DNA of 64,000 nt from Candidatus Bipolaricaulota bacterium (GCA_025060395.1 JANXCC010000004.1:37454-101453); one strand, 5' to 3'. Numbered from the stretch's first letter, positions 47,669-64,000 are shown. The notes: generated by a model not told the origin, from the sequence alone. Numbers and translations: made by a program.

Positions 47669-49063
47669 TTATAAGATATATCGGCTAAGGTCTAAGTCTT
47701 CGACAATGCCCTTGAGCTTGGCGTGCACATACGCAGCGTCGATGGTAAAAGTCTTCGGCTCAGGCAGATCGCACGTCTCAAAGGCAATATCTTCCATAAG
47801 TTTCTCCATCACGGTGTGCAAGCGCCGCGCCCCGATATTTTCTAAGCGCTCATTGAGGCGGAACGCGATCTCAGCAATCGCGTCGAGCGCATCATCCGTA
47901 AATTCTAGGCATAGCCCCTCCGTAGCCATCAACGCTTGGTACTGTTTTGTCAGGGCATCTTCAGGCTCCTTGAGGATCCGGCGAAAGTCTTCTTTGCTGA
48001 GGGGTTTAAGCTCAACGCGGATGGGGAGCCGCCCTTGGAGCTCCGGGATGAGATCCGACGGCTTAGACATAGTAAACGCTCCTGCTGCGATAAAGAGAAT
48101 ATTATCGGTGCGCACGTTGCCATAGCGGGTGCGTACCGTTGAGCCCTCCAAGATGGGCAAGAGATCGCGTTGCACCCCCTGCCGCGATACCCCAGGACCG
48201 AAGCGTTCCTCCCGCCCCCCTGCGGCGATCTTGTCAATCTCATCGATAAAAATAATCCCCATCTCTTCAGCACGTTGCACTGCCTGGCGCTTGATCTCAT
48301 CGAGATTGATGAGCTTATCAGCTTCTTCGTTGAAGAGCAGTTCGCGCGCCTCCTTGATCTTCATGCGCTTGACCGTGTAGCCGAAGCCCAAGGGATTGAG
48401 CTTCTCCAACAGCTCGCTCAGATCTACACCCAGCTGCTCCACCCCTTCAGCTGTGAAGAACCCGACTTGTGAGAAGGGGGACTCGCGCTTCACTCGGATC
48501 TCAACGTAGTGCTCTTCAAGGGCTCCGGCTCGCAACTTCTCTCGCAGCTTTTCGCGGGTCTGGCGCCAGGAGTCGCGACGTTCCTCATCCGCACTGCTGG
48601 GCGGCGTTGCCCCTATCAGGGCATCTAAGAGCCGCTCCTCTACGGCGCGCTCTGCTTCGTGCTTCACCTTCTCGATGGCCTCCTGGCGTACCATCTGGAA
48701 GCTTACTTCGACGAGATCCCGAACCATCGACTCGACATCGCGCCCGACATAGCCCACTTCAGTGTACTTTGTCGCTTCTACCTTTAAAAACGGTGCCTTG
48801 ATCAAGCTCGCAAGCCTGCGGGAGATCTCAGTCTTTCCCACCCCCGTAGGGCCGATCATCAAGATGTTCTTGGGAAGGATCTCTTTGCGGATGGGATCAG
48901 TCACGCGCATGCGTCGGATGCGATTTCTGAGAGCAATGGCCACCGCGCGCTTCGCCTCATACTGCCCAATAATATACTTATCGAGCTCGGCCACGATCTC
49001 CCTCGGGGAGAGCGCGCGTTTACTCGTGCGTTCGAACGCGTTGATCTCGACGATGTCAGCCAT
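47669..49063 (-). CDS. hslU: ATP-dependent protease ATPase subunit HslU
   Basis: [26 protein letters not shown], and C-terminal ...DLSRYIL. Confidence 0.95.
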
Positions 49064-49066
49064 CAG

Positions 49067-49615
49067 TCACCACTCAAGGGTTTCGATCGATATATGTTGA
49101 TTAGTATAGATATCCAACGCTCCTGCGATCTCCAGGGCTTTCCGCGCGATCTCCACGATGGGCAGTTGGGTGTTCTGGCGCAGGGCCTTGGCAGCCGCAA
49201 GCGCATAGGTTCCTCCAGACCCCAGCCCGATCATCTCGTCATCGGGCTCGAGAACATCCCCAGCCCCAGAGATCAGCAACAATCCTTCGGCGTTGACGAC
49301 AACCATCATGGCCTCTAAGCGCCGCAGGACTCTGTCGGTGCGCCAGTCTTTAGTGAGCTCGACCGCTGCACGCTTTAGGTTCCCGCCAAATTCTTTTAAT
49401 TTGCTCTCGAAACGCTCAAAGAGCGTGATGGCGTCGGCGGTCGCTCCGGCAAACCCCACCAAGACCTGATCGTTATAGATCTTGCGGATCTTTTTCGCCG
49501 TACTCTTTAGCACGACATTGTTGAGCGTCGCCTGCCCATCAGAAGCGATGACCGCGCGACGCTCCCGCGCTGAGCGAATCGCTAGAATAGTCGTGCCGTG
49601 GATACGCGCTTTCAT
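49067..49615 (-). CDS. hslV: ATP-dependent protease subunit HslV
   Basis: MKARIHG/TTILAIRS...GDGQATL and GSGGTYALAAA. Confidence 0.93.
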   Translation of the reverse strand: MKARIHGTTILAIRSARERRAVIASDGQATLNNVVLKSTAKKIRKIYNDQVLVGFAGATADAITLFERFESKLKEFGGNLKRAAVELTKDWRTDRVLRRLEAMMVVVNAEGLLLISGAGDVLEPDDEMIGLGSGGTYALAAAKALRQNTQLPIVEIARKALEIAGALDIYTNQHISIETLEW

Positions 49616-51781: not shown

Positions 51782-52345
51782 TCACCTCTCTTCCTCTGCC
51801 TGAGGAGGGGGAGGAGCTGGAGGTGAGGGTGACTTCCCACAAATCGGACAGAAATTCTCTTCGCTCAGGAAGCCGCACTGGGGACAGGGCTTCCAGCCTA
51901 GCTTCCAACGGGCCTTCTCCATTATCTTGGCTTTCCGCATAAGTTGCTTCACTGTGGCGCGCAGGGTCGGGTCGGCAAGCTCTACAACAAGCTGCTCGAT
52001 CTCGTGCTCTTCTTCAGGGCTCAGCTCAACAGCCTCGAGCGAGAGCACTGGGCGTGGCTTAGGGAAGCTCTCGACGCGAAAGCGAATCTCCTTGACGCGC
52101 TCGGCCCCCAAAGCGCTGTTGAGCTTTCTTCTGAATTCTTCTCGCATTAGGCTGAACTCGTGCTGGACGATGTGATTGGGCACCGCGACGAAGAGCACGC
52201 CCTCATGGACCCAGATCGGTCGCGCTAACCGTGAGATCCTCTGTCCAACAACGCGATCCCACATAAGCGCTGGCTCCTGCTCGCGATATCCTTCGAGCAG
52301 GCCGTACTTGCGTAACACCCTCTCGATCAGTGTTGCTTCGATCAT
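51782..52345 (-). CDS. DUF721 (DciA-like) protein with a C-terminal zinc ribbon
   Basis: The N-terminal ~95 aa fit DUF721 (W..VVG..I...A.P......VLFV.V......E). C-terminal CPQCG...CPICG and a Pro-rich tail. Confidence 0.7.
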   Translation of the reverse strand: MIEATLIERVLRKYGLLEGYREQEPALMWDRVVGQRISRLARPIWVHEGVLFVAVPNHIVQHEFSLMREEFRRKLNSALGAERVKEIRFRVESFPKPRPVLSLEAVELSPEEEHEIEQLVVELADPTLRATVKQLMRKAKIMEKARWKLGWKPCPQCGFLSEENFCPICGKSPSPPAPPPPQAEEER

Positions 52346-52346
52346 C

Positions 52347-53447
52347 TCATCCCTGCTTGAGCTTCCCTTCTCCTTGAGAGGGGAGAGGGATCACTCTTCC
52401 GTTCTCTATGGCGAAGATGCGCCGAGCTACCGCACGCACCTCCGGAAAGAGTTCTTCAGGGTCCATTGCTGTATGAGTGAGAAAGATCTGAATATCTTTA
52501 GGCAGAAGCTGCAAGAGCCGTTGGAGCCGAGGGCGATCCAGCTCCGTGAGCACGTCGTCCAAGATCAAGATAGGATAATCCCCGAAGCGCTGAAAGCCTA
52601 GATCAAGCTGGGCGAGCAAGACCGCGCAGAGCGCAGATTTCTGCTCCCCTTGTGAGCCAAAGCGCCTCAAGTCATGGCCATCGAGCATAAAGCGTAGATC
52701 GTCGCGATGAGGGCCGACTAAGATCATACGACGCCGGATCTCTTCTGGAGTGGCATCCCTGATGAGTTGAGCAAGGGGCACCGAAGGCCCCTCATAGCTG
52801 AGCACTAACTTGCTCTCGCGACCACAGATCGCTTGGTAGCGCTCGGGAAGCATCTTGTTGAGCTCCCGAATATATTCGCGTCGCTGAGCGATGAGCCAAC
52901 TCCCTCGCTCTACGAGCTCCTGGTTGAAGACCTCCAGGACTTCAGGATCAGGGGTCTCCTGATGCAATAGAGCGCTCTTGCGCTGGAGCACCTGCTCATA
53001 CTCGCGCAGCACATATCGATATTCACGCGAAATCTCGGAGATACTGCGGTCGAGAAAGCGCCGGCGCTGCTCAGGACGACCTTTGAGAATCTGTAATTCA
53101 TCTGGGGTAAAGAGCACGACGTGCAGCCGTGCGCTCAACTCGCTCTGGGTCTTCCTTTCGTGATTGAGCTCGATAGTCTTGGCACGCGCTCGTCCGTTGA
53201 GATGAACTCGGATCTCATCACCGTTGACAGAAAGCTCGATAGCGGCTTCTTGCTGCCCGAAGGCAATCACGTCACGCTGGCGCTCCCCCTTAAGCAACCA
53301 GCCTTTAGCAACGTAATAGATCGCTTCGCAGAGATTGCTCTTGCCTGCGGCATTGGGCCCAATGATGAGATTGAGCCCACCATCGGGCATCAGCTCTAGA
53401 GGCGCTAGATTGCGAAAGTTATAGAGCGCGAGACGCTCAACCTTCAT
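52347..53447 (-). CDS. recF: DNA replication/repair protein RecF
   Basis: NFRNL...GPNAAGKSNL Walker A, an SMC-like signature SQGEQK, and ILILDDV. Confidence 0.92.
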   Translation of the reverse strand: MKVERLALYNFRNLAPLELMPDGGLNLIIGPNAAGKSNLCEAIYYVAKGWLLKGERQRDVIAFGQQEAAIELSVNGDEIRVHLNGRARAKTIELNHERKTQSELSARLHVVLFTPDELQILKGRPEQRRRFLDRSISEISREYRYVLREYEQVLQRKSALLHQETPDPEVLEVFNQELVERGSWLIAQRREYIRELNKMLPERYQAICGRESKLVLSYEGPSVPLAQLIRDATPEEIRRRMILVGPHRDDLRFMLDGHDLRRFGSQGEQKSALCAVLLAQLDLGFQRFGDYPILILDDVLTELDRPRLQRLLQLLPKDIQIFLTHTAMDPEELFPEVRAVARRIFAIENGRVIPLPSQGEGKLKQG

Positions 53448-53459
53448 CTCGATGATATT

Positions 53460-54530
53460 TTACTCTGTGCGCTCAGCTAATGCGAGCAGCTGGGCTTTTA
53501 AGTGAGCGATCTCTCCGGCGAAGAGTGGGCTTTCGGCTAAGGCCTTGGCTTTACGATATGCATGCATGATCGTGGTATGATCGCGCCCCCCGAAGCTCAT
53601 CCCCAAGGCTGGGAAGGAGCGCTCGGTCAGTTCACGTGCGAGGTAGATCGCGATTTGACGCGCGCAGGCGATGCGTCGCTCTCGGCTCTCCCCTTCGAGG
53701 TCTTCGACGCTTATCTGATAATATCGCGCGACCTCGCGCTTGATGAGCTCGGGGGTGAGGAACTTGGGGCGCTCTGGCGGAGGGAGCACGTCCTTCAAGG
53801 CATCTTCGGAGAGCTCATGGCCGTTGAGCGAGATCGTAGCGGTCAAGCGCACCAGAGCCCCTTCTAAGGCGCGCACGTTCGAGCGCACCCGCTCCGCGAT
53901 ATACTCAAGTATGCTCGGGGGAAGTTCGAGCTGGAGCTCTTCGGCTTTCGTACGCAAGATCGCCAAGCGTGTCTTGGCATCAGGGGGCTGAATCTCCGCT
54001 ACTAACCCCCAGCCAAACCGTGAGATCAGCCCCTCTGGAAGATGGGGCAAGGCCTCTGGAGAGCGCGTCGAGGTCAAGACGATCTGTTTGCCGCGTTGGT
54101 AGAGATCGTTGAACGTGTGCAAGAGCTCTTCTTGGATAGCGGCTTTCTCACGGAGGAAGTGTACGTCGTCTAATAACAAGATATCTGCTGAGCGATAAGT
54201 CTTTCGAAACTGCGCGGTCTTGCCCTCTTGGAGGGCGCGGTAGAACTCGGTGGCGAAGCGCTCGCAAGTGACATAGAGAATCTTGAGCCAAGGGAAGCGA
54301 CGCGCTGCTTCGTTGCCGATGGCATGGAGAAGATGAGTCTTGCCTAAGCCCGAGGCGCTGTAGATAAACAAGGGATTATAAATGCGTGCGGGATTCTCTG
54401 CGACCGCAAGGGAAGCGGCGTATGCCAATCGGTTGCTCTCGCCACGGACGAATCGCGTGAACGTATACTCTGGCCGTAGCGTCGAAACAACAGCTGGGGG
54501 AGAGTCTCGCAACACAGCTTCTGATCGCAT
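53460..54530 (-). CDS. dnaA: DnaA-family protein consisting only of the AAA+ (III) and DNA-binding (IV) domains
   Basis: ATG 54530. YTFTRFVRGESNRLA, GLGKTHLLHAIGN, LLLDDVHFL, GGRDHTTIMHA. Only ~18 residues precede domain III. Confidence 0.85.
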   Translation of the reverse strand: MRSEAVLRDSPPAVVSTLRPEYTFTRFVRGESNRLAYAASLAVAENPARIYNPLFIYSASGLGKTHLLHAIGNEAARRFPWLKILYVTCERFATEFYRALQEGKTAQFRKTYRSADILLLDDVHFLREKAAIQEELLHTFNDLYQRGKQIVLTSTRSPEALPHLPEGLISRFGWGLVAEIQPPDAKTRLAILRTKAEELQLELPPSILEYIAERVRSNVRALEGALVRLTATISLNGHELSEDALKDVLPPPERPKFLTPELIKREVARYYQISVEDLEGESRERRIACARQIAIYLARELTERSFPALGMSFGGRDHTTIMHAYRKAKALAESPLFAGEIAHLKAQLLALAERTE

Positions 54531-54563
54531 CGTCGCTAACCCCTGGTGCTGGTAGGTACCCTC

Positions 54564-54593
54564 AGCATAGCAGAGATCCCAGGGCGTTGTCAA
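54564..54593 (-). promoter_or_regulatory. dnaA promoter
   Basis: On the minus strand: TTGACA (54593..54588), 18-nt spacer, TATGCT (54569..54564). The track's TTG start is part of the -35 hexamer. Confidence 0.5.
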
Positions 54594-54753
54594 GTCTGGA
54601 TCAAGAGGAACGATGGCGAGAAAACCCTTATTCCAAAAGTATTTTTTGCGTAGCCTCGTCGGGGTGACGCAACGGAGTCAGTGAGGTGATGAACATGACA
54701 CCGGTTTACTCGTTGGGCAGACGCGCCGTAGATTTTGCGGGAAATTGATCACC

Positions 54754-55518
54754 CTAGTTAGCAGACATAGCCCGTGTGAGGGTCACAACTCCCAGGGTAA
54801 TGGCCAACAGAGCGATCAAGGCTCTCAGGAAGCGCACGGGGAGCTTGTGCACGGTAAACGCGGCTAAGGGTGTCGAGATCACGGCGCCAATGAGAATAGG
54901 CACCGCGAGCTGCCAATTGATAGTGCTTACACTGAGCCAATACATGAGAACGCCGACGAGCGAGACGACTCCTTCGGAGAGACTAGTGATGCCCACGGCG
55001 GCCTTGGGGCTCAGCCCAGCGAGGATCTGGCCGGCCGTAATGATCGGACCATAGCCACCTCCGCTCACCCCTTTATTAAAAGAACTGAGCAATCCGATCC
55101 CAACAAGCCGCAGCCAAGAGAATCTCTGACTGCCCGAGGGCGTCACGAGCACGAAGACCCCCAGGGCGAGCACTAGCACGCCAATATAGACTTTGATTAT
55201 CCACGCAGGGAGCTTCACGGCTACAGTAACGGCAATCACTGCTCCCAGCGCGCCGATGAGCGAGAGCACTAGGACGACTCGAGAATCAAGAGAGCTCTTG
55301 CGGAAGCTCACGTTCCGATACGTATGATGAAACCCTGCGGCGACTAAGCCGGTGACGAATTCCGAGAGCAAGACAACAGGGACGATCTGGAGCGGCGTGA
55401 ACCCTAGCAACAATAGCAACGGGGTAAGAGTCGTGCCGTAGCCCATGCCAAGAGAAGAGTCTATATACTCAGCGACGAAAGCGAGCGCCACCAAGATCAA
55501 GAAGAATTCCCAGGCCAC
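54754..55518 (-). CDS. TauE/SafE-family anion exporter
   Basis: 254 aa, 7-8 TM, with the duplicated Gly-rich TM pattern typical of TauE. Confidence 0.8.
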   Translation of the reverse strand: MAWEFFLILVALAFVAEYIDSSLGMGYGTTLTPLLLLLGFTPLQIVPVVLLSEFVTGLVAAGFHHTYRNVSFRKSSLDSRVVLVLSLIGALGAVIAVTVAVKLPAWIIKVYIGVLVLALGVFVLVTPSGSQRFSWLRLVGIGLLSSFNKGVSGGGYGPIITAGQILAGLSPKAAVGITSLSEGVVSLVGVLMYWLSVSTINWQLAVPILIGAVISTPLAAFTVHKLPVRFLRALIALLAITLGVVTLTRAMSAN

Positions 55519-55595
55519 AACGCAGTATACCCCAAAGCGGATCTCCTAAGCAAATTTGCGCCGGGGCTCTCTATGAGCTATGATGGCGTCGTGCT

Positions 55596-55790
55596 ATGAG
55601 CTGGCGCTGGTTGTTGGCTTTGTTGATCGTTAGCAGCTTGCTGTTCTTAGGGGCACGCTATTTTATACTTGCGCGGCTCAAGAACGAAGAATATCATCAG
55701 TGCCCACACTGCAAGAGCTTCTATCGCGGTGCGGTGATGTACTGTCCGCACTGCGGACAAGTCGTCGCTCGGTGGTCCAATAGGCGCTAA
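55596..55790 (+). CDS. small membrane-anchored zinc-ribbon protein
   Basis: 64 aa with one TM, then CPHC...CPHCG. Confidence 0.5.
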   Translation: MSWRWLLALLIVSSLLFLGARYFILARLKNEEYHQCPHCKSFYRGAVMYCPHCGQVVARWSNRR

Positions 55791-55803
55791 GCGTTCCGCT
55801 CGC

Positions 55804-56520
55804 TTACTCGTTCACTTCAAGGACTGTGCTCAGTATGAGCTCCGTTGAGGTCGCCTGGTAAGCCGCTTGGCCTTCTCCTTCGATCTTGCTTGCTCCCGGC
55901 TGCTCGACCGTCACCGTATAGACCCACTCATGTGATCCCCCCTTGGTAAGCCGTAGGAGCATGAACTCCAAGTCCTCATAAGAGCTCAAAGTATAGGGCA
56001 GGATCTCGCGCCAATAGATATATTCGATATCGCGCTTGGCCGTCACTCGCAGTTTGATCTGAATCGTCTCACCGACTTGGAGGGGTCTGTTGGGGAGGAT
56101 GCGCTCGACGATGACCAGCTCGTTCTCTACCCGTTCGACGCGGAACGCCGGAGGCGGCGGCGCGAGCACGGTGATCTTCGTGCTCGCGGTGTCGGCCTGA
56201 CCCGCTTGGTCGTAGACCGTCAGGTGGATGGTGTACTGCCCGGGCTTGTCAAACGTCGGGGTGATTTGTATCCCAGTAAATTCACGACCATCGCTCAGCT
56301 TCCAGTGGATGAGCACGAGCCCACGGTCGTCCTTTGACTGCGACGCATCCAAGATCACGGTCAACGGGGCAACGCCTGTGCGCTCCTTTTGGCAGTTTGG
56401 ACACTCCAAAGCGATCACAGCCATGGGAGGTTGATCGGGCTTCTCCCCAATCGGAATAGGCTGAGTGCACCCTGCCAGCACCACAAGCGCGAATAAGCTT
56501 ATCACCTTTGAAGATCTCAT
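55804..56520 (-). CDS. PKD-domain lipoprotein
   Basis: Lipobox LAGC. PKD-like APLTVILDAS..WKLSDG...GQYTIHLTVYDQAG. Confidence 0.65.
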   Translation of the reverse strand: MRSSKVISLFALVVLAGCTQPIPIGEKPDQPPMAVIALECPNCQKERTGVAPLTVILDASQSKDDRGLVLIHWKLSDGREFTGIQITPTFDKPGQYTIHLTVYDQAGQADTASTKITVLAPPPPAFRVERVENELVIVERILPNRPLQVGETIQIKLRVTAKRDIEYIYWREILPYTLSSYEDLEFMLLRLTKGGSHEWVYTVTVEQPGASKIEGEGQAAYQATSTELILSTVLEVNE

Positions 56521-56613
56521 GTTCTCATCTCCTTAGCTGAGCTGTTACCCTTAGACTACCCTAAAGGGCATTCACCCAATATCCCAGAGCGCAACAAGGA
56601 CTGTGACGTTGAT

Positions 56614-56670
56614 CACCCTACACCCTTGACTTCCCTCTCCCTTGGAGGGGAGAAGGGTTAGGGAGGGGAG
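56614..56670. repeat. second copy of the G/C-tract palindromic element
   Basis: CACCCTACACCC..TTCCCTCTCCC-ttgga-GGGGAGAAGGGTTAGGGAGGGGAG, an imperfect long hairpin. Its right arm resembles that of 3179..3232. Confidence 0.45.
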
Positions 56671-56677
56671 AAGGAGT

Positions 56678-56706
56678 TTGACAGTTCTCTCTTGATGAGC
56701 TACACT
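56678..56706 (+). promoter_or_regulatory. promoter of the HU-like gene
   Basis: TTGACA 56678..56683, 17-nt spacer, TACACT 56701..56706. Confidence 0.55.
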
Positions 56707-56731
56707 AAACCAAACCCGCGGGGAGGGGCCT

Positions 56732-57064
56732 ATGCGCAAGATCGACTTAGTCGCTCAAGTAGCGCAGCGGACAGGAATGCCTAAGGAGGCCATTTTGAAG
56801 TCATTAAACGCCGCGCTTGCTGTGATCTCGGAGACGATAGCCCAGGGGGAAGAGGTGCGGTTAAAGGGATTTGGGACCTTTGTGGTACGACCGCGTCGCC
56901 CTACGCGGCGCAGCAATCTGTGGACTCGTCAGGTCTTTGCTATCCCAAGCAAGCCGATACCGCGCTTTGTCCCAGGAAAGGCTCTCAAGCAGCGTGTGCT
57001 CAGCAATCTCACCGTAGTAGAACTGCCAAGTGGACGTCTAGCTATCCGTCCAAAGTCTGGCTAG
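56732..57064 (+). CDS. HU/IHF-family DNA-binding protein with a C-terminal extension
   Basis: MRKIDLVAQVAQRTGMPK...VRLKGFGTFVVR...FVPGKALKQRV. Confidence 0.85.
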   Translation: MRKIDLVAQVAQRTGMPKEAILKSLNAALAVISETIAQGEEVRLKGFGTFVVRPRRPTRRSNLWTRQVFAIPSKPIPRFVPGKALKQRVLSNLTVVELPSGRLAIRPKSG

Positions 57065-58509
57065 AGGCGCTTCAAGAATTGCTCCGCTTCGTCTTTGTAA
57101 GAATGGAACGGATCGGCCAGGACGAGGGTGCGCTTAGGCTCGACGAAGACCCCGTCCCACTCGATCATATATTCGCCGACGGTTCGACCCCGTAAGCCGC
57201 GCACGATCAGAGCCCGCCCATAAGCCCTAGTGTCAGAAGGAGGCTCCTCTATAGCTCGTTCGATCTGGGAATTGCTTACGAGCCGCCGTCGCGACTCGAG
57301 CGCATAGTAGAGCCCTTGCTCCGGGTCTATATTGTGATATTCTAAATCTAGGCTATGTAAGGCATCGTCTTGCCAGGTGAGCCCTTCGGCGTCCTTGAAA
57401 AGCTGGATCATGGAGAATTTAGCGACCCAATCGAGGCGGTCAGCCAGCTCCATAGGATCGCGCTCGAGGGCGTCGAGGGTCTCTTCCCATTCGCGCAGGA
57501 CTTCATCGGTCTCCGGATCACGTCCGGCAAAGTGCCGCTGGGCGGCCTGCAGATAGAGGCGTTGCAGGTCGATGGCAGAGATCGTCGAACCATCGTCACG
57601 TCGGACGATCCAGGTGTGTGTCGGATCGCGAGAGATCTCCTTGAGGGCGCGCAATGGCGCGGCCAACTCCACCCCGGAGGGAACGGCTTGTTCTTCTAGC
57701 AGATCCAAGACCAAGATCGTTGTGCCCACCTTGAGAAACGTTGCGTATTCTGAGGGATTGGCCTCGCCAAAGAGCAGGTGGAGTCGTGGGCTGCGGGAGA
57801 GCTCGTACATCTGATCCCACTTGGGATTAATCAGGGCGCGGCTGAAGCGCACCCGCCCGGAGACCGTATGCAGAATATGATCGGCACGTTGAGAGAGCTG
57901 GAAGTCCACGGTTGGATCGGGCTCGACCCCGTAGGCTGAGTCGACAAAGACCGTATCGGCGATATGGCGGGACTTGGTCTGCCACGTGGTAGTCAAGCGA
58001 TGGCCACCGACCCGTCCCGCTCCAGCAAAGATCTGGCGTGTCACTAAGAAGGGGACTAATTTCTCGAGCGCATGCCGCCAGGAGAGCGACTCGGGATCGA
58101 CAGAATAATTCTCATGGCAGCCAAACGTATGGCCCGCAAAGTGATCGACGCTATTGTTATAGAAGCTGACTCGATCGTGGAGGCGGAGATCGCGCAATAC
58201 TTTCAAAATGAGTCGCTGTCCGGCTCGCTCGTAGGCGATCAAGTCGCGTAGCGATCGGCACTCCGGCGTAGCATACTCAAGGTGCGAGCCAACGGCATCG
58301 ATATAGAGCCGTCCCCCGTTGATTAAGAATCCTCCGGCCTCAGCAGGCTCAAAGTACATATCACGAGTATGCAAGTCGAGGAGACCCCAGCGTCTGTTGC
58401 GAAAGACCTCGTCCTTGACCCGCTCCACGATCTCTTCATAGGGCCCAAGTCGGGGATCGCGCACCAGACAGCCAAACTCCGTCTCCAGCCCGACAACGCG
58501 ATGATCCAT
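57061..58509 (-). CDS. pafA: Pup/UBact ligase PafA homolog
   Basis: 482 aa. GLETEFG...LEYATPEC...GCHENY. Lacks the insertion seen in the 501-aa paralog. It is the last gene of the proteasome operon. Confidence 0.8.
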   Translation of the reverse strand: MDHRVVGLETEFGCLVRDPRLGPYEEIVERVKDEVFRNRRWGLLDLHTRDMYFEPAEAGGFLINGGRLYIDAVGSHLEYATPECRSLRDLIAYERAGQRLILKVLRDLRLHDRVSFYNNSVDHFAGHTFGCHENYSVDPESLSWRHALEKLVPFLVTRQIFAGAGRVGGHRLTTTWQTKSRHIADTVFVDSAYGVEPDPTVDFQLSQRADHILHTVSGRVRFSRALINPKWDQMYELSRSPRLHLLFGEANPSEYATFLKVGTTILVLDLLEEQAVPSGVELAAPLRALKEISRDPTHTWIVRRDDGSTISAIDLQRLYLQAAQRHFAGRDPETDEVLREWEETLDALERDPMELADRLDWVAKFSMIQLFKDAEGLTWQDDALHSLDLEYHNIDPEQGLYYALESRRRLVSNSQIERAIEEPPSDTRAYGRALIVRGLRGRTVGEYMIEWDGVFVEPKRTLVLADPFHSYKDEAEQFLKRL

Positions 58510-58546
58510 CGTTCACGCTCCTGTTCATAACATTAGCTGATTGGGA

Positions 58547-59281
58547 TCATCTTGGCAAGAACGGCTTCAGTTCCTGGTCACTCAAGAAGCGGAAGCGGCG
58601 CTCACGCCGCGATACCCGCTCCAGGAAGGCCGCTTCGACCATGCCCGTCTTGAGCGCTTCGGAAAGCACAGCGCGCCATTCAAGCGCGGAGGAAGCTTCG
58701 TGGCGTCCTACCGCCCAGGCCTCGAGCGCCTTCTCCAAGGCCGCGTCTCGTTTGGGCACCTTCTTAGTGAACTCCACGAGCACGCGCTCCATCATCTCGC
58801 GAGCGCGCTCCGTCCCCGCCGCCACTCCAAAGCGATAGGTCAGCGAAAACTCCCCGTCATAGTTGAGCAGATAAAACAGATCGCTGTCGGGAGTATCGCC
58901 CAGCTGTGCAAAGAGCCCGCGCACGACTAAGGGTAATCGTAATGGATCGCTGAAGCTGCGCTTCATGGCTGGGCTGAGCGCCACGCCCACGACCCGTTGG
59001 ATCGAGACGTCTTGAGGGCTACGGGCAAACCCTTCCGCGTGAGCAAAGTCAACAGCGAGCTGGCGAATCGTTTCTAAGTCTGATTGATTGCCTAAGCCCG
59101 CAAATGCCAATCTATCGTAGATCTCGAAGATCTTCTGCTGGTGAGCGCGACGCACCGTCACTAACAAGATCCCTTCGTGACACGAGAGGCCCACGATGGG
59201 GCTCCCCTCGCGTAAGCGATCCTCAACGTAATCGGCCTTCTGACGGAGCGTTTGCTGCCAATCGTAGGGGGTGAATGCCAT
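58547..59281 (-). CDS. prcA: 20S proteasome alpha subunit (bacterial type)
   Basis: KIFEIYDRLAFAGLGNQSDLETIR pattern and no N-terminal Thr. Starts at ATG 59281, or at GTG 59287 overlapping the prcB stop. Confidence 0.85.
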   Translation of the reverse strand: MAFTPYDWQQTLRQKADYVEDRLREGSPIVGLSCHEGILLVTVRRAHQQKIFEIYDRLAFAGLGNQSDLETIRQLAVDFAHAEGFARSPQDVSIQRVVGVALSPAMKRSFSDPLRLPLVVRGLFAQLGDTPDSDLFYLLNYDGEFSLTYRFGVAAGTERAREMMERVLVEFTKKVPKRDAALEKALEAWAVGRHEASSALEWRAVLSEALKTGMVEAAFLERVSRRERRFRFLSDQELKPFLPR

Positions 59282-59283
59282 AG

Positions 59284-60078
59284 TCACTCTTTCAGCAAAG
59301 TCTTTTGGAGGGAGCGTAAGAGCTCTTCGGGGACGTCGGCGACGCCTTCAGCCGTTACGGTCTTAGCGAGGGGCAAGTGGTGATGAATCCCACCGGTTGC
59401 TGTGTCCAGAGACGCCGCGATCTCAAGCAAGAGGAGCGTCTCACGCAGTGCTGCTTCCAGCGTCATAGTGTGAAACGGGCCCTTAGTGCGCACGATATAC
59501 TCGAAGGCACCCCGAATCCGTTCTGCGCCAGAGCCAGCGGCACCGAACTCCCGGCTCTCAAAGCGCGCGCCCATCACATCGTAGAAGAATATACGCCCTT
59601 CATGCTTTTCCCTATCGAAGGCGCTGACGATGGGCAAGAACCCGCCGATCCCCTGAAGAGCCCCGGGGAGAGACCGACTGAGCACGCGCGAGACCTCAGA
59701 GAGTTTGCCCTCCAAACTGAGCTCTTGGAGCTGGCTCCGGGCATAGTACTTAAAAGAATGCTGCAAGAAGCGCACGGCCTCAAACGCTGCGGCGTAAGAC
59801 CCAGCAATAGCGATGAGCGTCTCATCATCGAGCTTTAAGATCTTTTCGGCCTCTTCATAGAAGATCGCGTTGCCCGCTGTAGCACGGCGGTCAGCGACGT
59901 TTAAGACGCCCTTATCGAACTTCACGGCGATGACTGTCGTGCCATGGGCCCAGACCCCGTTGGCACACTGCCCGTGGGTTCTATCTTCGCCGGCTGCAAG
60001 CTGGCGAGGGCGAATATCCCAGACGGAGTCTGGCATCCCATAGGCCTCAAGGAGCTTGGCGAAGTCGCCGTAGCTCAT
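59284..60078 (-). CDS. prcB: 20S proteasome beta subunit with a 46-aa propeptide
   Basis: ATG 60078. The propeptide ends ...VWAHG/TTVIAVKF. Asp17 and Lys33 are in register with Thr1. Confidence 0.9.
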   Translation of the reverse strand: MSYGDFAKLLEAYGMPDSVWDIRPRQLAAGEDRTHGQCANGVWAHGTTVIAVKFDKGVLNVADRRATAGNAIFYEEAEKILKLDDETLIAIAGSYAAAFEAVRFLQHSFKYYARSQLQELSLEGKLSEVSRVLSRSLPGALQGIGGFLPIVSAFDREKHEGRIFFYDVMGARFESREFGAAGSGAERIRGAFEYIVRTKGPFHTMTLEAALRETLLLLEIAASLDTATGGIHHHLPLAKTVTAEGVADVPEELLRSLQKTLLKE

Positions 60079-60082
60079 CGAC

Positions 60083-60253
60083 TCACTCTCCGCTGCGTTG
60101 GCGATAACGCTGCGCTTGCCGCGGGTCGACGCGGCGCATCCGCTCCAAGAGCCTCTCGGTGTCGGGCTTGGGCACATTGGGAGTGCGCGGGCCGTCGTCC
60201 GTGGGCTTGGTCAACGGATCCTGTGGTATGGGTCTTGTGATGCGTTCCGGCAT
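60083..60253 (-). CDS. UBact/Pup-family prokaryotic ubiquitin-like modifier (56 aa)
   Basis: Hand translation gives MPERITRPIPQDPLTKPTDDGPRTPNVPKPDTERLLERMRRVDPRQAQRYRQRSGE-stop. GGAGGA lies 6 nt upstream. Positioned between dop and prcB and absent from the ORF track. Confidence 0.75.
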   Translation of the reverse strand: MPERITRPIPQDPLTKPTDDGPRTPNVPKPDTERLLERMRRVDPRQAQRYRQRSGE

Positions 60254-60256
60254 CGG

Positions 60257-61762
60257 TTATCCTCCTTTCGTCTCAAGAGTCTGCTGTATGATACCCAAAA
60301 GCTCGCGTGGCGTCGAGACCCCCTTCGCCCAGTGAGGGAGCATTGCGACCCGACCGTCGACGAGCGAGCGCAGATCGATCGTGAAGTCTTGGCTGTTGTG
60401 CGAAAGCGTTATTCGCCCCCAGTTGAGCGCCCGGATGGCCGAAGAGAACTTTCTCACGCACAGCCCACGGATGTACGCACGTGTATCGTGTGGGGGGTCA
60501 TGGAGGGCGCGGACGATCTCGTCGTCAGAGACGAGTCGGCGCAGCATCCCTTGATTCTGTAACTCATAGAAGAGACCGCGAGTTGGATCGAGAGCGTGGT
60601 ACTCTAAGTCTAGACTTTGAACGATCTCATCGCGCCAGCTCAGCTTTTCAGTTTCAATAAAAGTCTGGAGCAATTGGCGCTTAGCGACCCAGTCGAGCCG
60701 GTCGGCACAGCGCATCGGATCGGCTTCGAGATCGTCCAGCACAGATTCCCATTCTTTCAGGAGCCAATCGGTCTCAGCGTCGCGATGGCCGAAGAGCTCT
60801 TGGGCGGCTTTCAGATATGCCCGCTGGACCTCAAGGGCTGAGAGAGTGCCTTCTTCTTCAAGCTCGACGAGCCATCTATAAGCTTGATCACGCGAGAGCT
60901 CTTTAAGCGTTTTAATGGGGTCTTTGAGGGTCCCAGGTGGGTCGTAGCCCGCTTCCAATAACCCCACAACCAGGGCTGTTGTACCGACCTTGAGGGCGAG
61001 AGCGTACTCGCTGAGGTTCGCATCCCCGCAGATGACATGCAGTCTTCTATAGAGTCTTTCATCGGCGTGCGGCTCGTCGCGACTATTTATGAGCGGGCGG
61101 CGATCCAGCGTGTCCACGCTGCACAACTCTGTAAAAAAATCAGCGCGCTGGGAGAGCTGAAAGTCGACCCAACTCTCCTCGCCACCGACGCGACCTGCTC
61201 CCGTAAAGAGAATGCGCGTTACCAGAAACGGAATCAGCCCGGCAATCAGCTTCTCGAAGGGGAGTGCCCGTGAGACTAAATAGTTCTCATGGCAGCCGAA
61301 GCTCATGCCGTGATAGTCGATATTGTTTTTAAAGATCGAGACGGAGCGTCTTGTCTTCTGAGCATAGGCTTGGGCTGCCGCCCAGACGATGCGTTCCCCT
61401 GCTTTGTCATGGGCGACAAGCTCCCGAAGTGACCGACACTCGGGGGTACTGTATTCGGGATGGCCGTGATCGTGATAAAAGCGTGCGCCGTTGGCTAAGA
61501 CTTTATCAGCGTGATCTTCAGAAGCACTTAAGTGTTTACGCGAGGGCTTTTCGTAGGCGTCGTCTTTGGGATTAGTTGTTAAAAACGGGGCACGCCAGCC
61601 ACGGGCATCTCGGAGAGGGTCTTCGTCGCGATAGTCCCAGGGCTGGGCAGAAGGCCCAGAATAGCTTTGCACAACGGCGCGGACCTCATCGACGAGATCC
61701 GTGACGTCCACACCATCTATGAGAATACCGTATTCAGTCTCGATGCCAAGCAAGCGATCCAT
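60257..61762 (-). CDS. dop: depupylase/deamidase Dop homolog
   Basis: ATG 61762, 501 aa. GIETEYG...PEYSTPEC...GCHENY. A ~50-residue insertion relative to the pafA paralog sits at the position of the Dop loop. Confidence 0.8.
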   Translation of the reverse strand: MDRLLGIETEYGILIDGVDVTDLVDEVRAVVQSYSGPSAQPWDYRDEDPLRDARGWRAPFLTTNPKDDAYEKPSRKHLSASEDHADKVLANGARFYHDHGHPEYSTPECRSLRELVAHDKAGERIVWAAAQAYAQKTRRSVSIFKNNIDYHGMSFGCHENYLVSRALPFEKLIAGLIPFLVTRILFTGAGRVGGEESWVDFQLSQRADFFTELCSVDTLDRRPLINSRDEPHADERLYRRLHVICGDANLSEYALALKVGTTALVVGLLEAGYDPPGTLKDPIKTLKELSRDQAYRWLVELEEEGTLSALEVQRAYLKAAQELFGHRDAETDWLLKEWESVLDDLEADPMRCADRLDWVAKRQLLQTFIETEKLSWRDEIVQSLDLEYHALDPTRGLFYELQNQGMLRRLVSDDEIVRALHDPPHDTRAYIRGLCVRKFSSAIRALNWGRITLSHNSQDFTIDLRSLVDGRVAMLPHWAKGVSTPRELLGIIQQTLETKGG

Positions 61763-61768
61763 ACAACT

Positions 61769-61777
61769 ATTATGCCA
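61769..61777 (-). promoter_or_regulatory. extended -10 element (TGgCATAAT) giving a leaderless dop transcript
   Basis: The minus strand reads TGGCATAAT-agttgt-ATG, so only 6 nt separate the hexamer from the ATG. Confidence 0.45.
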
Positions 61778-61832
61778 GAAAACCGTTCGAAGTTCGAGTC
61801 TTGCTCTCAGCTTCCGGTGCAGGCAGGAATGG

Positions 61833-61861
61833 TTGACGAGCGGAGCAAGAGCCGTTATAAT
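61833..61861 (+). promoter_or_regulatory. tRNA operon promoter
   Basis: TTGACG 61833..61838, 17-nt spacer, TATAAT 61856..61861, 10 nt before tRNA-Asp. Confidence 0.6.
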
Positions 61862-61871
61862 GTGCCTATGC

Positions 61872-61948
61872 GGGGGTGTGGTGTAGAGGCCTAACACGCT
61901 GCCCTGTCAAGGCAGAGATCGCGGGTTCAAATCCCGTCATCCCCGCCA
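61872..61948 (+). tRNA. tRNA-Asp (GTC), CCA encoded
   Basis: Cloverleaf folded by hand: acceptor GGGGGTG/CATCCCC, D stem GTGT/ACAC, anticodon stem CTGCC/GGCAG with loop CTGTCAA, T arm GCGGG-TTCAAAT-CCCGT, G73, CCA. Confidence 0.93.
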
Positions 61949-62016
61949 GGCCGCCTGGACCGTTCATCTTCGACAGCCGGAGGCTGGCGAAGGCATACAA
62001 GTTCAGACGAAGTCTG

Positions 62017-62089
62017 GCCGAGGTAGCTCAGGTGGTAGAGCACAGGACTGAAAATCCTGGTGTCGGCGGTTCGAGTCCGCCCCTCGGCA
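62017..62089 (+). tRNA. tRNA-Phe (GAA), no encoded CCA
   Basis: Acceptor GCCGAGG/CCTCGGC, D stem GCTC/GAGC, anticodon stem CAGGA/TCCTG with loop CTGAAAA, T arm GGCGG-TTCGAGT-CCGCC, A73. Confidence 0.93.
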
Positions 62090-62172
62090 TTCTTTTCTCA
62101 TCTACTTGCGCTCCCACGCTCTCTTCCGTTAAACTGTGAGCACAAGACTCTATCTTCTAAAGGAGACATAAC

Positions 62173-62553
62173 ATGGCCTATCCCAAAGAGTATCGCTACA
62201 CCAAAGAACACGAATGGGTCAAGCTCGAAAACGGCAAAGCTCGCATCGGGATCACCGACCATGCCCAGCATCAGTTGGGCGATATCGTCTACGTCGAGTT
62301 GCCCAAGATCGGCACTAAGGTCAAACAAATGCAAGAGTTCGCCACCGTCGAGTCCGTCAAGGCCATCTCTCCGATTTATGCCCCTCTCAGTGGTGAGGTC
62401 ATCGACGTCAATAAAGAGCTCGAAACGAAACCCGAATTGATCAATCAATCCCCCCATGAGCAAGGCTGGATCGCTATCATCGCCCCAAGCGATCTCACAG
62501 AGCTCGACTCTCTGCTTACAGCTGAACAATACGAGAGACATATAGGGGCTTGA
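62173..62553 (+). CDS. gcvH: glycine cleavage system protein H
   Basis: YTKEHEWV...VESVKA with the lipoyl-Lys. AAAGGAG precedes the ATG. Confidence 0.95.
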   Translation: MAYPKEYRYTKEHEWVKLENGKARIGITDHAQHQLGDIVYVELPKIGTKVKQMQEFATVESVKAISPIYAPLSGEVIDVNKELETKPELINQSPHEQGWIAIIAPSDLTELDSLLTAEQYERHIGA

Positions 62554-62579
62554 GCCCTTGACCCTCAAAGGAGGTATGA

Positions 62580-63923
62580 ATGACTGCGTTTGAGTTCATC
62601 CCCAACACATTAGAAGATCAGCGCAAGATGCTTGCGGAGATCGGGCTCTCTGATGTTGAGGAGCTCTTTGTGGATATCCCTGCAGAGGTGTTGAAACGAT
62701 TTAAGCCCCTTGGGCTTAAGCCCATCAGCGAGCTTGAGGTCTCTCAACTCGTTAGTCGAATGGCATCCGAGAACGCCCATACGGGACAGTACGTGAGCTT
62801 CCTTGGTGGAGGCATCTATGATCACTATGTTCCGGCAATTATCTCGCATCTCATCTCACGCGGGGAATTCTTGACGTGTTACACCCCCTACCAAGCCGAG
62901 CTTTCCCAAGGGACGCTCACCTGGATGTTTGAGTTCCAGACGATGATCTGCGAGCTGACAGCGATGGAGGTCGCCAACTCTTCTATGTATGACGGCGGCT
63001 CCGCTCTAGCTGAAGCGATGCTCATGGCCAAGAACATCACAGGAAGGAAGAGATTCTTAGTCTCCAAGAGCCTCAATCCCCATCACAGAAGGTGTTTGGA
63101 GACGTATGCCTGGGGCGTGGGCCTAGAGCTGATAGACGTGCCCTTCACCGAGACGGGCCAGCTCGACCGCGCGGCCCTCCAGCCCGGCGAGCTTGATGAT
63201 CTAGGGGGGCTTATCGTGCAGACCCCCAATTTCTTTGGGGTGATCGAAGATCTCTCTGGACTGAAAGAGCTGATCAAAGACGCGTTCTTGATCGTGAGCG
63301 TCAATCCCATATCGCTGGGGCTTTTGGCCCCTCCGGGGCTCTTTGGGGCAGATATCGTCGTAGGGGAGGGGCAGCCCTTGGGCATCCCCCAGAGCTTTGG
63401 CGGCCCGCTCTTGGGGATCTTTGCGACAAGAATGAACTATGTGCGCAGGATGCCGGGGCGCATGTCTGGGCGCACCGTCGACGCCGACGGGCGCGTCGGC
63501 TATGTGATGGCCCTGCAGACGCGAGAACAACACATCCGACGAGAGAAAGCGACGTCGAACATCTGCACCAACCAAGCCTTGATGGCATTGTGTGCGACTA
63601 TTTATATGGCGACTCTGGGGCGGCACGGCCTGCGAAAATTAGCCGAGCTCAACCTTCAGAAAGCCCACTATCTTGCGGAGAAGATCGCCAAGCTCCCAGG
63701 GTTTGCGCTGAGATTTTCCGGGCCGTTCTTCAACGAATTTGTCGTTCGGACCCGCAAGAAGCCCAGCCGTCTGCTCAAGGCGCTTCGCGATGAGGGCTTC
63801 TTAGGAGGGCTCGATCTGGAATCCTACGAACTCCTAGACGGCAATAATCTCCTGGTCGCGGTCACCGAAAAGCGCACCCGCGACGAAATGGATCGCTTCG
63901 TCAAGGTCTTGAAAGGAGCGTAA
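62580..63923 (+). CDS. gcvPA: glycine dehydrogenase (aminomethyl-transferring) subunit 1
   Basis: 447 aa. FLGGGIYDHYVP, YTPYQAELSQG, EKATSNICTNQAL. Confidence 0.95.
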   Translation: MTAFEFIPNTLEDQRKMLAEIGLSDVEELFVDIPAEVLKRFKPLGLKPISELEVSQLVSRMASENAHTGQYVSFLGGGIYDHYVPAIISHLISRGEFLTCYTPYQAELSQGTLTWMFEFQTMICELTAMEVANSSMYDGGSALAEAMLMAKNITGRKRFLVSKSLNPHHRRCLETYAWGVGLELIDVPFTETGQLDRAALQPGELDDLGGLIVQTPNFFGVIEDLSGLKELIKDAFLIVSVNPISLGLLAPPGLFGADIVVGEGQPLGIPQSFGGPLLGIFATRMNYVRRMPGRMSGRTVDADGRVGYVMALQTREQHIRREKATSNICTNQALMALCATIYMATLGRHGLRKLAELNLQKAHYLAEKIAKLPGFALRFSGPFFNEFVVRTRKKPSRLLKALRDEGFLGGLDLESYELLDGNNLLVAVTEKRTRDEMDRFVKVLKGA

Positions 63924-63926
63924 GCT

Positions 63927-64000
63927 ATGGGAAACACCATCTTCGATATTGGTGAGGAGAACCGCATTGGACTTCGGCTGCCTGCTCTCGATGTTCCCGA
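63927..64000 (+). CDS. gcvPB: glycine dehydrogenase subunit 2, N-terminal fragment (cut by window edge)
   Basis: MGNTIFDIGEENRIGLRLPALDVP... starts 3 nt after the gcvPA stop. GAAAGGAG lies upstream. Confidence 0.75.
   Translation, partial: MGNTIFDIGEENRIGLRLPALDVP

Follow-up and report, generated by a model that had tools for sequence, protein, structure and literature searches.

The UBact family was reportedly described and named by Lehmann et al. in 2017 (PMID 28087277, as cited in PMC5751360) and is represented in Pfam, NCBIfam, and Swiss-Prot. As early as 2008, Pup-like genes had been reported from outside the Actinobacteria (PMC2588565). The gene presented here, located at 60083..60253 on the minus strand of a 64,000-nt stretch of a Candidatus Bipolaricaulota genome (the window), is a known and already annotated member of this known family. 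An exact-sequence look-up found its 56-aa product in GenBank as the "ubiquitin-like protein UBact" of a Candidatus Bipolaricaulota metagenome-assembled genome (MAG; MCS7197967.1 and MDW8030614.1). Its neighbors are deposited under adjacent accession numbers on a contig of 489,262 bp (Dop-like, MCS7197968.1; PafA-like, MCS7197964.1; HslU, MCS7197953), and the exact UBact sequence and these neighbors come from Candidatus Bipolaricaulota MAGs, i.e., from outside the Actinobacteria. Swiss-Prot H5SQ95, the UBact protein of Candidatus Acetothermum autotrophicum, is 89% identical and falls into the same 90% cluster. With the family curated in three databases and the exact protein already named UBact, the gene carries little weight as a discovery.

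Read on the minus strand from the ATG at 60253 to the TGA at 60085..60083, the gene comprises 56 codons plus the stop and translates directly to MPERITRPIPQDPLTKPTDDGPRTPNVPKPDTERLLERMRRVDPRQAQRYRQRSGE, which ends in Arg-Ser-Gly-Glu (RSGE) directly before the stop codon. A Shine-Dalgarno-like GGAGGA (60260..60265, minus strand) lies within the final codons of the Dop-like gene, 6 nt ahead of the UBact ATG, and on sequence reading is a putative ribosome-binding site; in most related loci, similar AGGAGG-like motifs are found ahead of the UBact start codon. The dop stop codon TAA (60259..60257) is followed by ccg and then by the UBact ATG, and the UBact TGA is followed by 4 nt (gtcg) and the prcB ATG at 60078. 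An earlier note, made from the sequence alone, had arrived at the same open reading frame (ORF), translation, and stop by hand and had placed the GGAGGA motif 6 nt before the ATG and within the last dop codons, with the stop 4 nt ahead of prcB; program translation and sequence reading reproduce all of these. The note had also called the gene hidden, which holds for an ORF track with a 60-aa filter and does not hold for the NCBI pipeline, which already annotates the identical sequence as UBact. An ORF finder reports the frame once its threshold is dropped to 40 aa. At its upstream end, the ORF-finder form of prcB (59284..60177) is in frame with the ATG at 60078 and overlaps the UBact ORF in a different frame. 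This extension had been taken for spurious, and rightly so, because homologs align from residue 1 to 4 of the 264-aa form and the PrcB match in relatives begins a few nucleotides past the UBact stop; the prcB start is thereby confirmed as 60078, not 60177. A reading of the raw sequence had thus recovered a real 56-codon gene that was lost to a 60-aa filter and masked by an over-extended neighbor.

Both curated UBact models match the product far above their cutoffs. Pfam PF20513 gives 72.5 bits against a cutoff of 27.8 (E = 2.4e-20), and the NCBIfam equivalog NF033388 gives 76.7 bits against a cutoff of 35 (E = 1.2e-21) and covers profile positions 3 to 54 of 54. The profile search had been named by the earlier note as a check on its proposal of a UBact/Pup-type modifier nearer to UBact; the UBact profiles matched and the Pup models, PF05639 among them, did not, in line with that proposal. 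When the window was compared with ten close relatives, the UBact frame had a dN/dS of 0.12 overall and 0.064 in codons 33 to 56, and variable sites at codon positions 1, 2, and 3 numbered 16, 13, and 51, respectively. Four of the other five frames had ratios above 1, and the antisense frame that shares wobble positions had a ratio of 0.21. A second gene in that antisense frame was considered and rejected, the value being the mirror effect that shared wobble positions usually produce. The C-terminal half of UBact is almost invariant; the N-terminal half is variable and Pro rich, with whole-codon insertions and deletions. When one genome per species was scanned, 151 genomes proved to have a relative, and 80 loci (L001 to L080), from Bipolaricaulota and Armatimonadota, were kept. 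The invariance of RYRQRSG in these loci is partly built in by the scan patterns and was excluded as independent evidence of conservation. The ORF at 60083..60253 is a real gene, as three independent lines (the profile matches, the dN/dS of 0.12 with its third-position excess, and the conserved synteny described below) show; it belongs to the UBact family and is under purifying selection.

Some of the related assemblies call for comment in their own right. In one low-coverage MAG (about 4.5×; L006:46-216), codon 4 of the UBact gene is an in-frame stop (MPE, stop, IVRP...), which is probably an assembly error rather than the mark of a pseudogene. Several MAGs labeled Thermotogae, Fraserbacteria, or Chloroflexota carry the same five-gene UBact operon (L002, L003, L005, L009, L012, L020, L023, L029, and L032), and in the five closest of these (L002, L003, L005, L009, and L012), the operon proteins are 78 to 95% identical to those of the Bipolaricaulota window. 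These taxonomic labels are probably mis-assignments.

The C-terminal signature was examined in an exhaustive HMMER search of 1.84 billion representative sequences, because the patterns used in the locus scan had required R-S-G. The search returned 182 clusters at an E value of ≤0.001, and the best 150 were examined. A terminal R-x-G-[EQ] is present in 116 of these best 150 of the 182 cluster representatives; it takes the form R-[T/S]-G-[E/Q] in 114 (RTGQ, 61; RTGE, 25; RSGE, 17; RSGQ, 11) and another form in two. The signature R-[T/S]-G-[E/Q], which the earlier note had given, therefore describes the family well. In the related loci, the terminal residue is Glu in 64/80 and Gln in 16/80. The Ser and Glu of the window protein are minority variants in the family, yet typical of its own clade. 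Some family representatives end differently, in ...RYRQKGGQ or ...RYNQKSGQ (P0324 and P0327); these ends are intermediate between R-[TS]-G-[EQ] and K-G-G-Q and hint at homology between UBact and Pup.

UBact is the second gene of a five-gene operon, all on the minus strand, in the order dop-like, ubact, prcB, prcA, and pafA-like. Successive genes are separated by 3 nt and 4 nt, then overlap, and then are 37 nt apart, and the operon is tightly packed and probably translationally coupled. This order recurs in almost every one of the 80 related loci, wherever the flanking DNA suffices. A promoter and terminator scan of 56500..62700 returned counts no higher than those for shuffled sequence, and no operon boundaries are claimed from it. 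The proteasome beta subunit PrcB (59284..60078, minus strand; 264 aa) matches PF00227 and, at 131 bits, TIGR03690. Its Thr47 aligns with Thr1 of the mature beta subunit of Rhodococcus and Mycobacterium, at an HG|TT processing site that leaves a 46-aa propeptide. The alpha subunit PrcA (58547..59287, minus strand) is supported by TIGR03691 (79 bits), PF00227 (22.8 bits), and a conserved position in relatives. The start of prcA is ambiguous, being either a GTG at 59287 that overlaps the prcB stop (GTGA) or an ATG 6 nt downstream that gives MAFTPYDW....

Upstream of dop, a 156-aa ORF (62098..62568, minus strand) is conserved at 63 to 70% identity and occupies the same position in L003 and L010; it matched no Pfam or NCBIfam family. 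Beyond it lies gcvPA, on the opposite strand. An hslVU pair is encoded 8 kb from the proteasome operon (47669..49615, minus strand; HslU, TIGR00390 at 630 bits; HslV, NF003964 at 257 bits). The pair is complete, and so the genome encodes a 20S proteasome together with HslVU, the simpler bacterial relative of that particle.

Two members of the Pup_ligase family flank the modifier and proteasome genes. The Dop-like gene (60257..61762, minus strand), which terminates 3 nt ahead of the UBact ATG, encodes a 501-aa predicted UBact depupylase that matches PF03136 at 527 bits. Its best NCBIfam match is to Dop (TIGR03688), at 460 bits and under the equivalog cutoff of 492, and it scores 364 bits against solved Dop (4B0R) versus 254 bits against PafA (4B0T). 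The product has the Dop-type YHDHGHPEYSTPE (D-H-G-H-P-E-Y-S-T-P motif, where the Dop pattern is D-H-A-H and S-[AT]-P) beside the catalytic Asp, as well as an insertion that aligns to the Dop loop. Its alpha-loop residues differ from the actinobacterial ones. His is found at position 11 of the Dop-like proteins in 71/71 loci.

The PafA-like gene (57061..58509, minus strand) encodes a 482-aa predicted UBact ligase that matches PF03136 at 412 bits. In NCBIfam, Dop and PafA (TIGR03686) tie as its best matches (289.6 versus 289.0 bits), far under the PafA cutoff of 551. It scores 238 bits against solved Dop versus 192 bits against PafA, and 304 bits against its own Dop-like partner versus 201 bits against actinobacterial PafA. 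Residue positions whose change turns Dop into a ligase are given by Hecht et al. 2020 in their Table 1 (PMC7947786). At these, the PafA-like product has the PafA type at positions 7 (F), 10 to 12 (V-G-S, with one extra Ala; D-A-V-G-S-H), 13 and 14 (A-T), 25 (H), 29 (S), and 33 (S); the Dop type at position 15 (P); and neither type at six alpha-loop positions (26 to 28 and 30 to 32). Phe 7, Gly 11, Ala 13, and His 25 are each present in 48/48 of its relatives. It lacks the Dop loop and aligns to the very C terminus of PafA. The earlier note had assigned ligase activity to this product and tag removal to the product of 60257..61762. The experimentally defined discriminating residues (PMC7947786) favor these roles, which are the better-supported assignment for the two sequences, with the ligase as a divergent member that is less clear-cut by overall score. 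Between its GAGRVG and FQLSQRAD segments, the PafA-like product is also lengthened by a clade-specific insertion of some 30 residues (~169 to 201). At residues ~222 to 232, it has INPKWDQMYEL in place of the INTRDEPHAD common to solved Dop and PafA, as is likewise seen in L043 and L079.

An Mpa/ARC-type AAA+ protein of 570 to 650 aa is encoded directly upstream of dop in at least 35 related loci and best matches the TIGR03689 proteasome ATPase (about 430 to 449 bits). The 64-kb window was found to have no Mpa gene, and neither its closest relatives nor the Fimbriimonadales group have one within 10 kb on either side. The loci cited for this pattern are the window, L003 to L012, L015 to L017, L019, L021 to L028, and L081. 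Candidatus Acetothermum autotrophicum has an Mpa-type ATPase (H5STI1), and Acetothermum-like metagenome contigs (L081 to L083; L081:6001-7716) carry a stand-alone Mpa gene flanked by a cold-shock gene on one side and a rhomboid gene on the other. Among 15 listed members of a 94-member cluster, none had an accession number neighboring those of the window's own MAG (MCS719xxxx). Armatimonadetes JP3_11 has a UBact locus lacking Mpa (L036) and encodes Mpa on another contig (P0126). Because the Acetothermum relatives and JP3_11 keep an unlinked Mpa, loss of the gene in the window clade appears unlikely; judged from these relatives, it most likely resides at another site in the genome.

The structure of UBact was predicted with AlphaFold2 from 22 homologs. 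Residues 1 to 31 are modeled as coil (pLDDT, about 57 to 64) and residues 32 to 42 and 44 to 54 as helices (pLDDT, about 85 to 88), a model that agrees with the earlier description, in which the N-terminal half looked disordered and the C-terminal half helical. The predicted fold is consistent with the conservation pattern and with the bihelical core predicted for Pup (PMC2588565). Foldseek retrieved no PDB entry similar to the model at an E value of ≤10, an uninformative outcome that is to be expected of a helical hairpin of 56 residues.

By homology with pupylation, we consider it highly probable that this protein is the UBact of a Pup-like system outside the Actinobacteria that would work by conjugation, removal, and delivery to the proteasome. 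The PafA-like enzyme (57061..58509) would use ATP to phosphorylate the side-chain carboxylate of the C-terminal Glu of UBact and would then form an isopeptide bond between that carboxylate and lysines of target proteins. No deamidation step should be needed, since the encoded terminal residue is Glu from the outset and not Gln; this expectation, voiced in the earlier note, follows from established Pup biochemistry and has a parallel in Corynebacterium (PMC3511204). The Dop-like enzyme (60257..61762) would take the tag off its targets. The Arg-rich, two-helix C-terminal half may be recognized by the enzymes and the unfoldase, and the Pro-rich, disordered N-terminal half may thread into an Mpa/ARC-type AAA+ ring that feeds the 20S proteasome (PrcA/PrcB). 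Pup conjugation has been demonstrated, whereas no UBact conjugation experiment was found in the searchable literature, whose coverage did not include Lehmann et al. 2017; the mechanism is accordingly drawn from homology. In papers on the phylum Bipolaricaulota, no mention of a proteasome was found. A first Bipolaricaulota culture has recently been reported (bioRxiv 10.1101/2025.11.21.689855) and would make UBact conjugation and delivery to the proteasome testable, an opportunity not specific to this window.

Alternatives to this reading concern whether the ORF is a gene, what kind of modifier it encodes, and how the modifier acts. A 56-codon ORF by itself has little significance, because short ORFs of its size are abundant on both strands in DNA with a G+C content of 56%: the region 52000..64000 is overlapped by 90 ORFs of 40 aa or more, and the UBact frame itself by two longer ones on the plus strand (59944..60240 and 60098..60562). 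A chance frame in G+C-rich DNA, or an untranslated dop-prcB spacer, is nevertheless effectively refuted and has next to no chance of being correct, given profile E values of 1e-20 to 1e-21 beyond curated cutoffs, the low dN/dS with its excess of third-position changes, a strong Shine-Dalgarno motif, and an ORF that is intact and constant in position in the 80 kept loci, with L006 as the exception. It is also very improbable that the product is an ordinary Pup (PF05639) to which the actinobacterial rules apply, namely, a G-G-[QE] end, an acidic helix, and coiled-coil binding to Mpa. Such a reading could appeal to Iyer et al. 2008, who classed the non-actinobacterial homologs as Pup orthologs that have in common a bihelical core and a G-[EQ] terminus (PMC2588565), and to the few family outliers with a Pup-like KGGQ end (P0324). 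It could also appeal to an hhalign comparison with Mycobacterium tuberculosis Pup (sequence checked against PDB 7PX9), in which the sole alignment, though not significant (probability, 2.4%), is collinear at the C terminus (T-x-x-L-L ... R-x-Y-x-Q-x-x-G-[EQ]). Against it, PF05639 gave no match at an E value of ≤1 for the window protein and matched 0/32 UBact proteins at an E value of ≤10, and a UBact profile searched against PDB sequences found no solved Pup chain at an E value of ≤10. Weak matches in that search, such as those to a purine nucleoside phosphorylase and LipL32, were spurious (all E > 0.4). The window protein ends in S-G-E, not the G-G-[Q/E] of Pup, with only the last two positions, G-[EQ], common to both, and the net charge is +3 in UBact residues 30 to 56 versus −10 in Pup residues 34 to 64. 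Details of recognition are not simply transferable from Pup, because its helices are strongly acidic and those of UBact are basic. A distant common ancestry of UBact and Pup is plausible on sequence grounds.

That UBact is conjugated but serves mainly as a regulatory, nondegradative mark in the window clade, or is served there by a different unfoldase, we regard as quite unlikely. The Mpa gene does lie outside the operon in this clade and in the Fimbriimonadales, pupylation without a proteasome link is known in other lineages (PMC2588565, PMC3511204), and the window encodes HslUV as an alternative protease. However, ubact still sits tightly between dop and prcB in the same operon as prcB-prcA-pafA, PrcB retains its catalytic Thr, and an Mpa homolog is present elsewhere in the genomes of close relatives. 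Points that weigh against the main reading, that of pupylation-like conjugation and proteasome delivery, are the overall ligase scores, which favor Dop; the insertion and the INPKWDQMYEL segment of the ligase; the lack of Mpa in the 64-kb window; and the basic helices. It is unlikely, too, that ligase activity in the UBact systems of Bipolaricaulota and Armatimonadota evolved independently of the actinobacterial PafA lineage, or that recognition of the tag differs, so that these systems would not be simple copies of pupylation. What speaks for this is the closer match of the ligase to its Dop-like partner than to PafA (304 versus 201 bits), its insertion of about 30 residues, the absence of RDEPHAD, the opposite helix charge, and the unfoldase gene outside the operon.

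Compared with known systems, the likeness of UBact to ubiquitin, the archaeal SAMPs, and other beta-grasp modifiers is one of functional analogy only, in that each would be a small lysine-attached protein able to direct proteins to the proteasome. The UBact model has no beta-grasp, and its sequence has no Gly-Gly end. Beta-grasp modifiers depend on an E1/E2/E3 thioester cascade, whereas UBact would be attached through an acyl phosphate on the side chain of its terminal Glu, made by a ligase of the glutamine synthetase fold (PMC2588565, PMC3511204).

The resemblance to Pup, as known from M. tuberculosis and other Actinobacteria, is closer. Both modifiers are small (50 to 90 aa), with a disordered N-terminal part, a helical C-terminal part, and a terminal G-[EQ]. 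Both are encoded beside a Dop/PafA-family gene and proteasome genes, and both systems have two paralogous enzymes of the carboxylate-amine ligase fold with Dop-type and PafA-type signatures. As in Corynebacterium Pup, an encoded terminal Glu would make deamidation unnecessary (PMC3511204). UBact differs in having no detectable sequence-family match to Pup, in ending in R-S-G-E rather than K-G-G-Q, in its Arg-rich, basic helices where those of Pup are Asp/Glu rich and acidic, and in its Pro-rich N-terminal half (10 Pro versus 0). The PafA-like enzyme of the UBact locus is, by overall score, no nearer to actinobacterial PafA than to Dop.

Within the UBact family, the window protein shares with H5SQ95 its length of 56 aa, its phylum, its R-S-G-E end, and its place between a Dop-like gene and prcB. 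Its clade departs from the wider family in having Ser before the Gly, where Thr is commoner, and Glu at the end, where Gln is commoner, and in an unlinked Mpa gene, which adjoins dop in many other UBact loci. The separate location of Mpa, the divergence of the ligase, and the reversal of charge with respect to Pup are modest side observations that concern the family at large and are no discoveries specific to this window, and the window protein shows no difference of substance from H5SQ95 or the UBact family.
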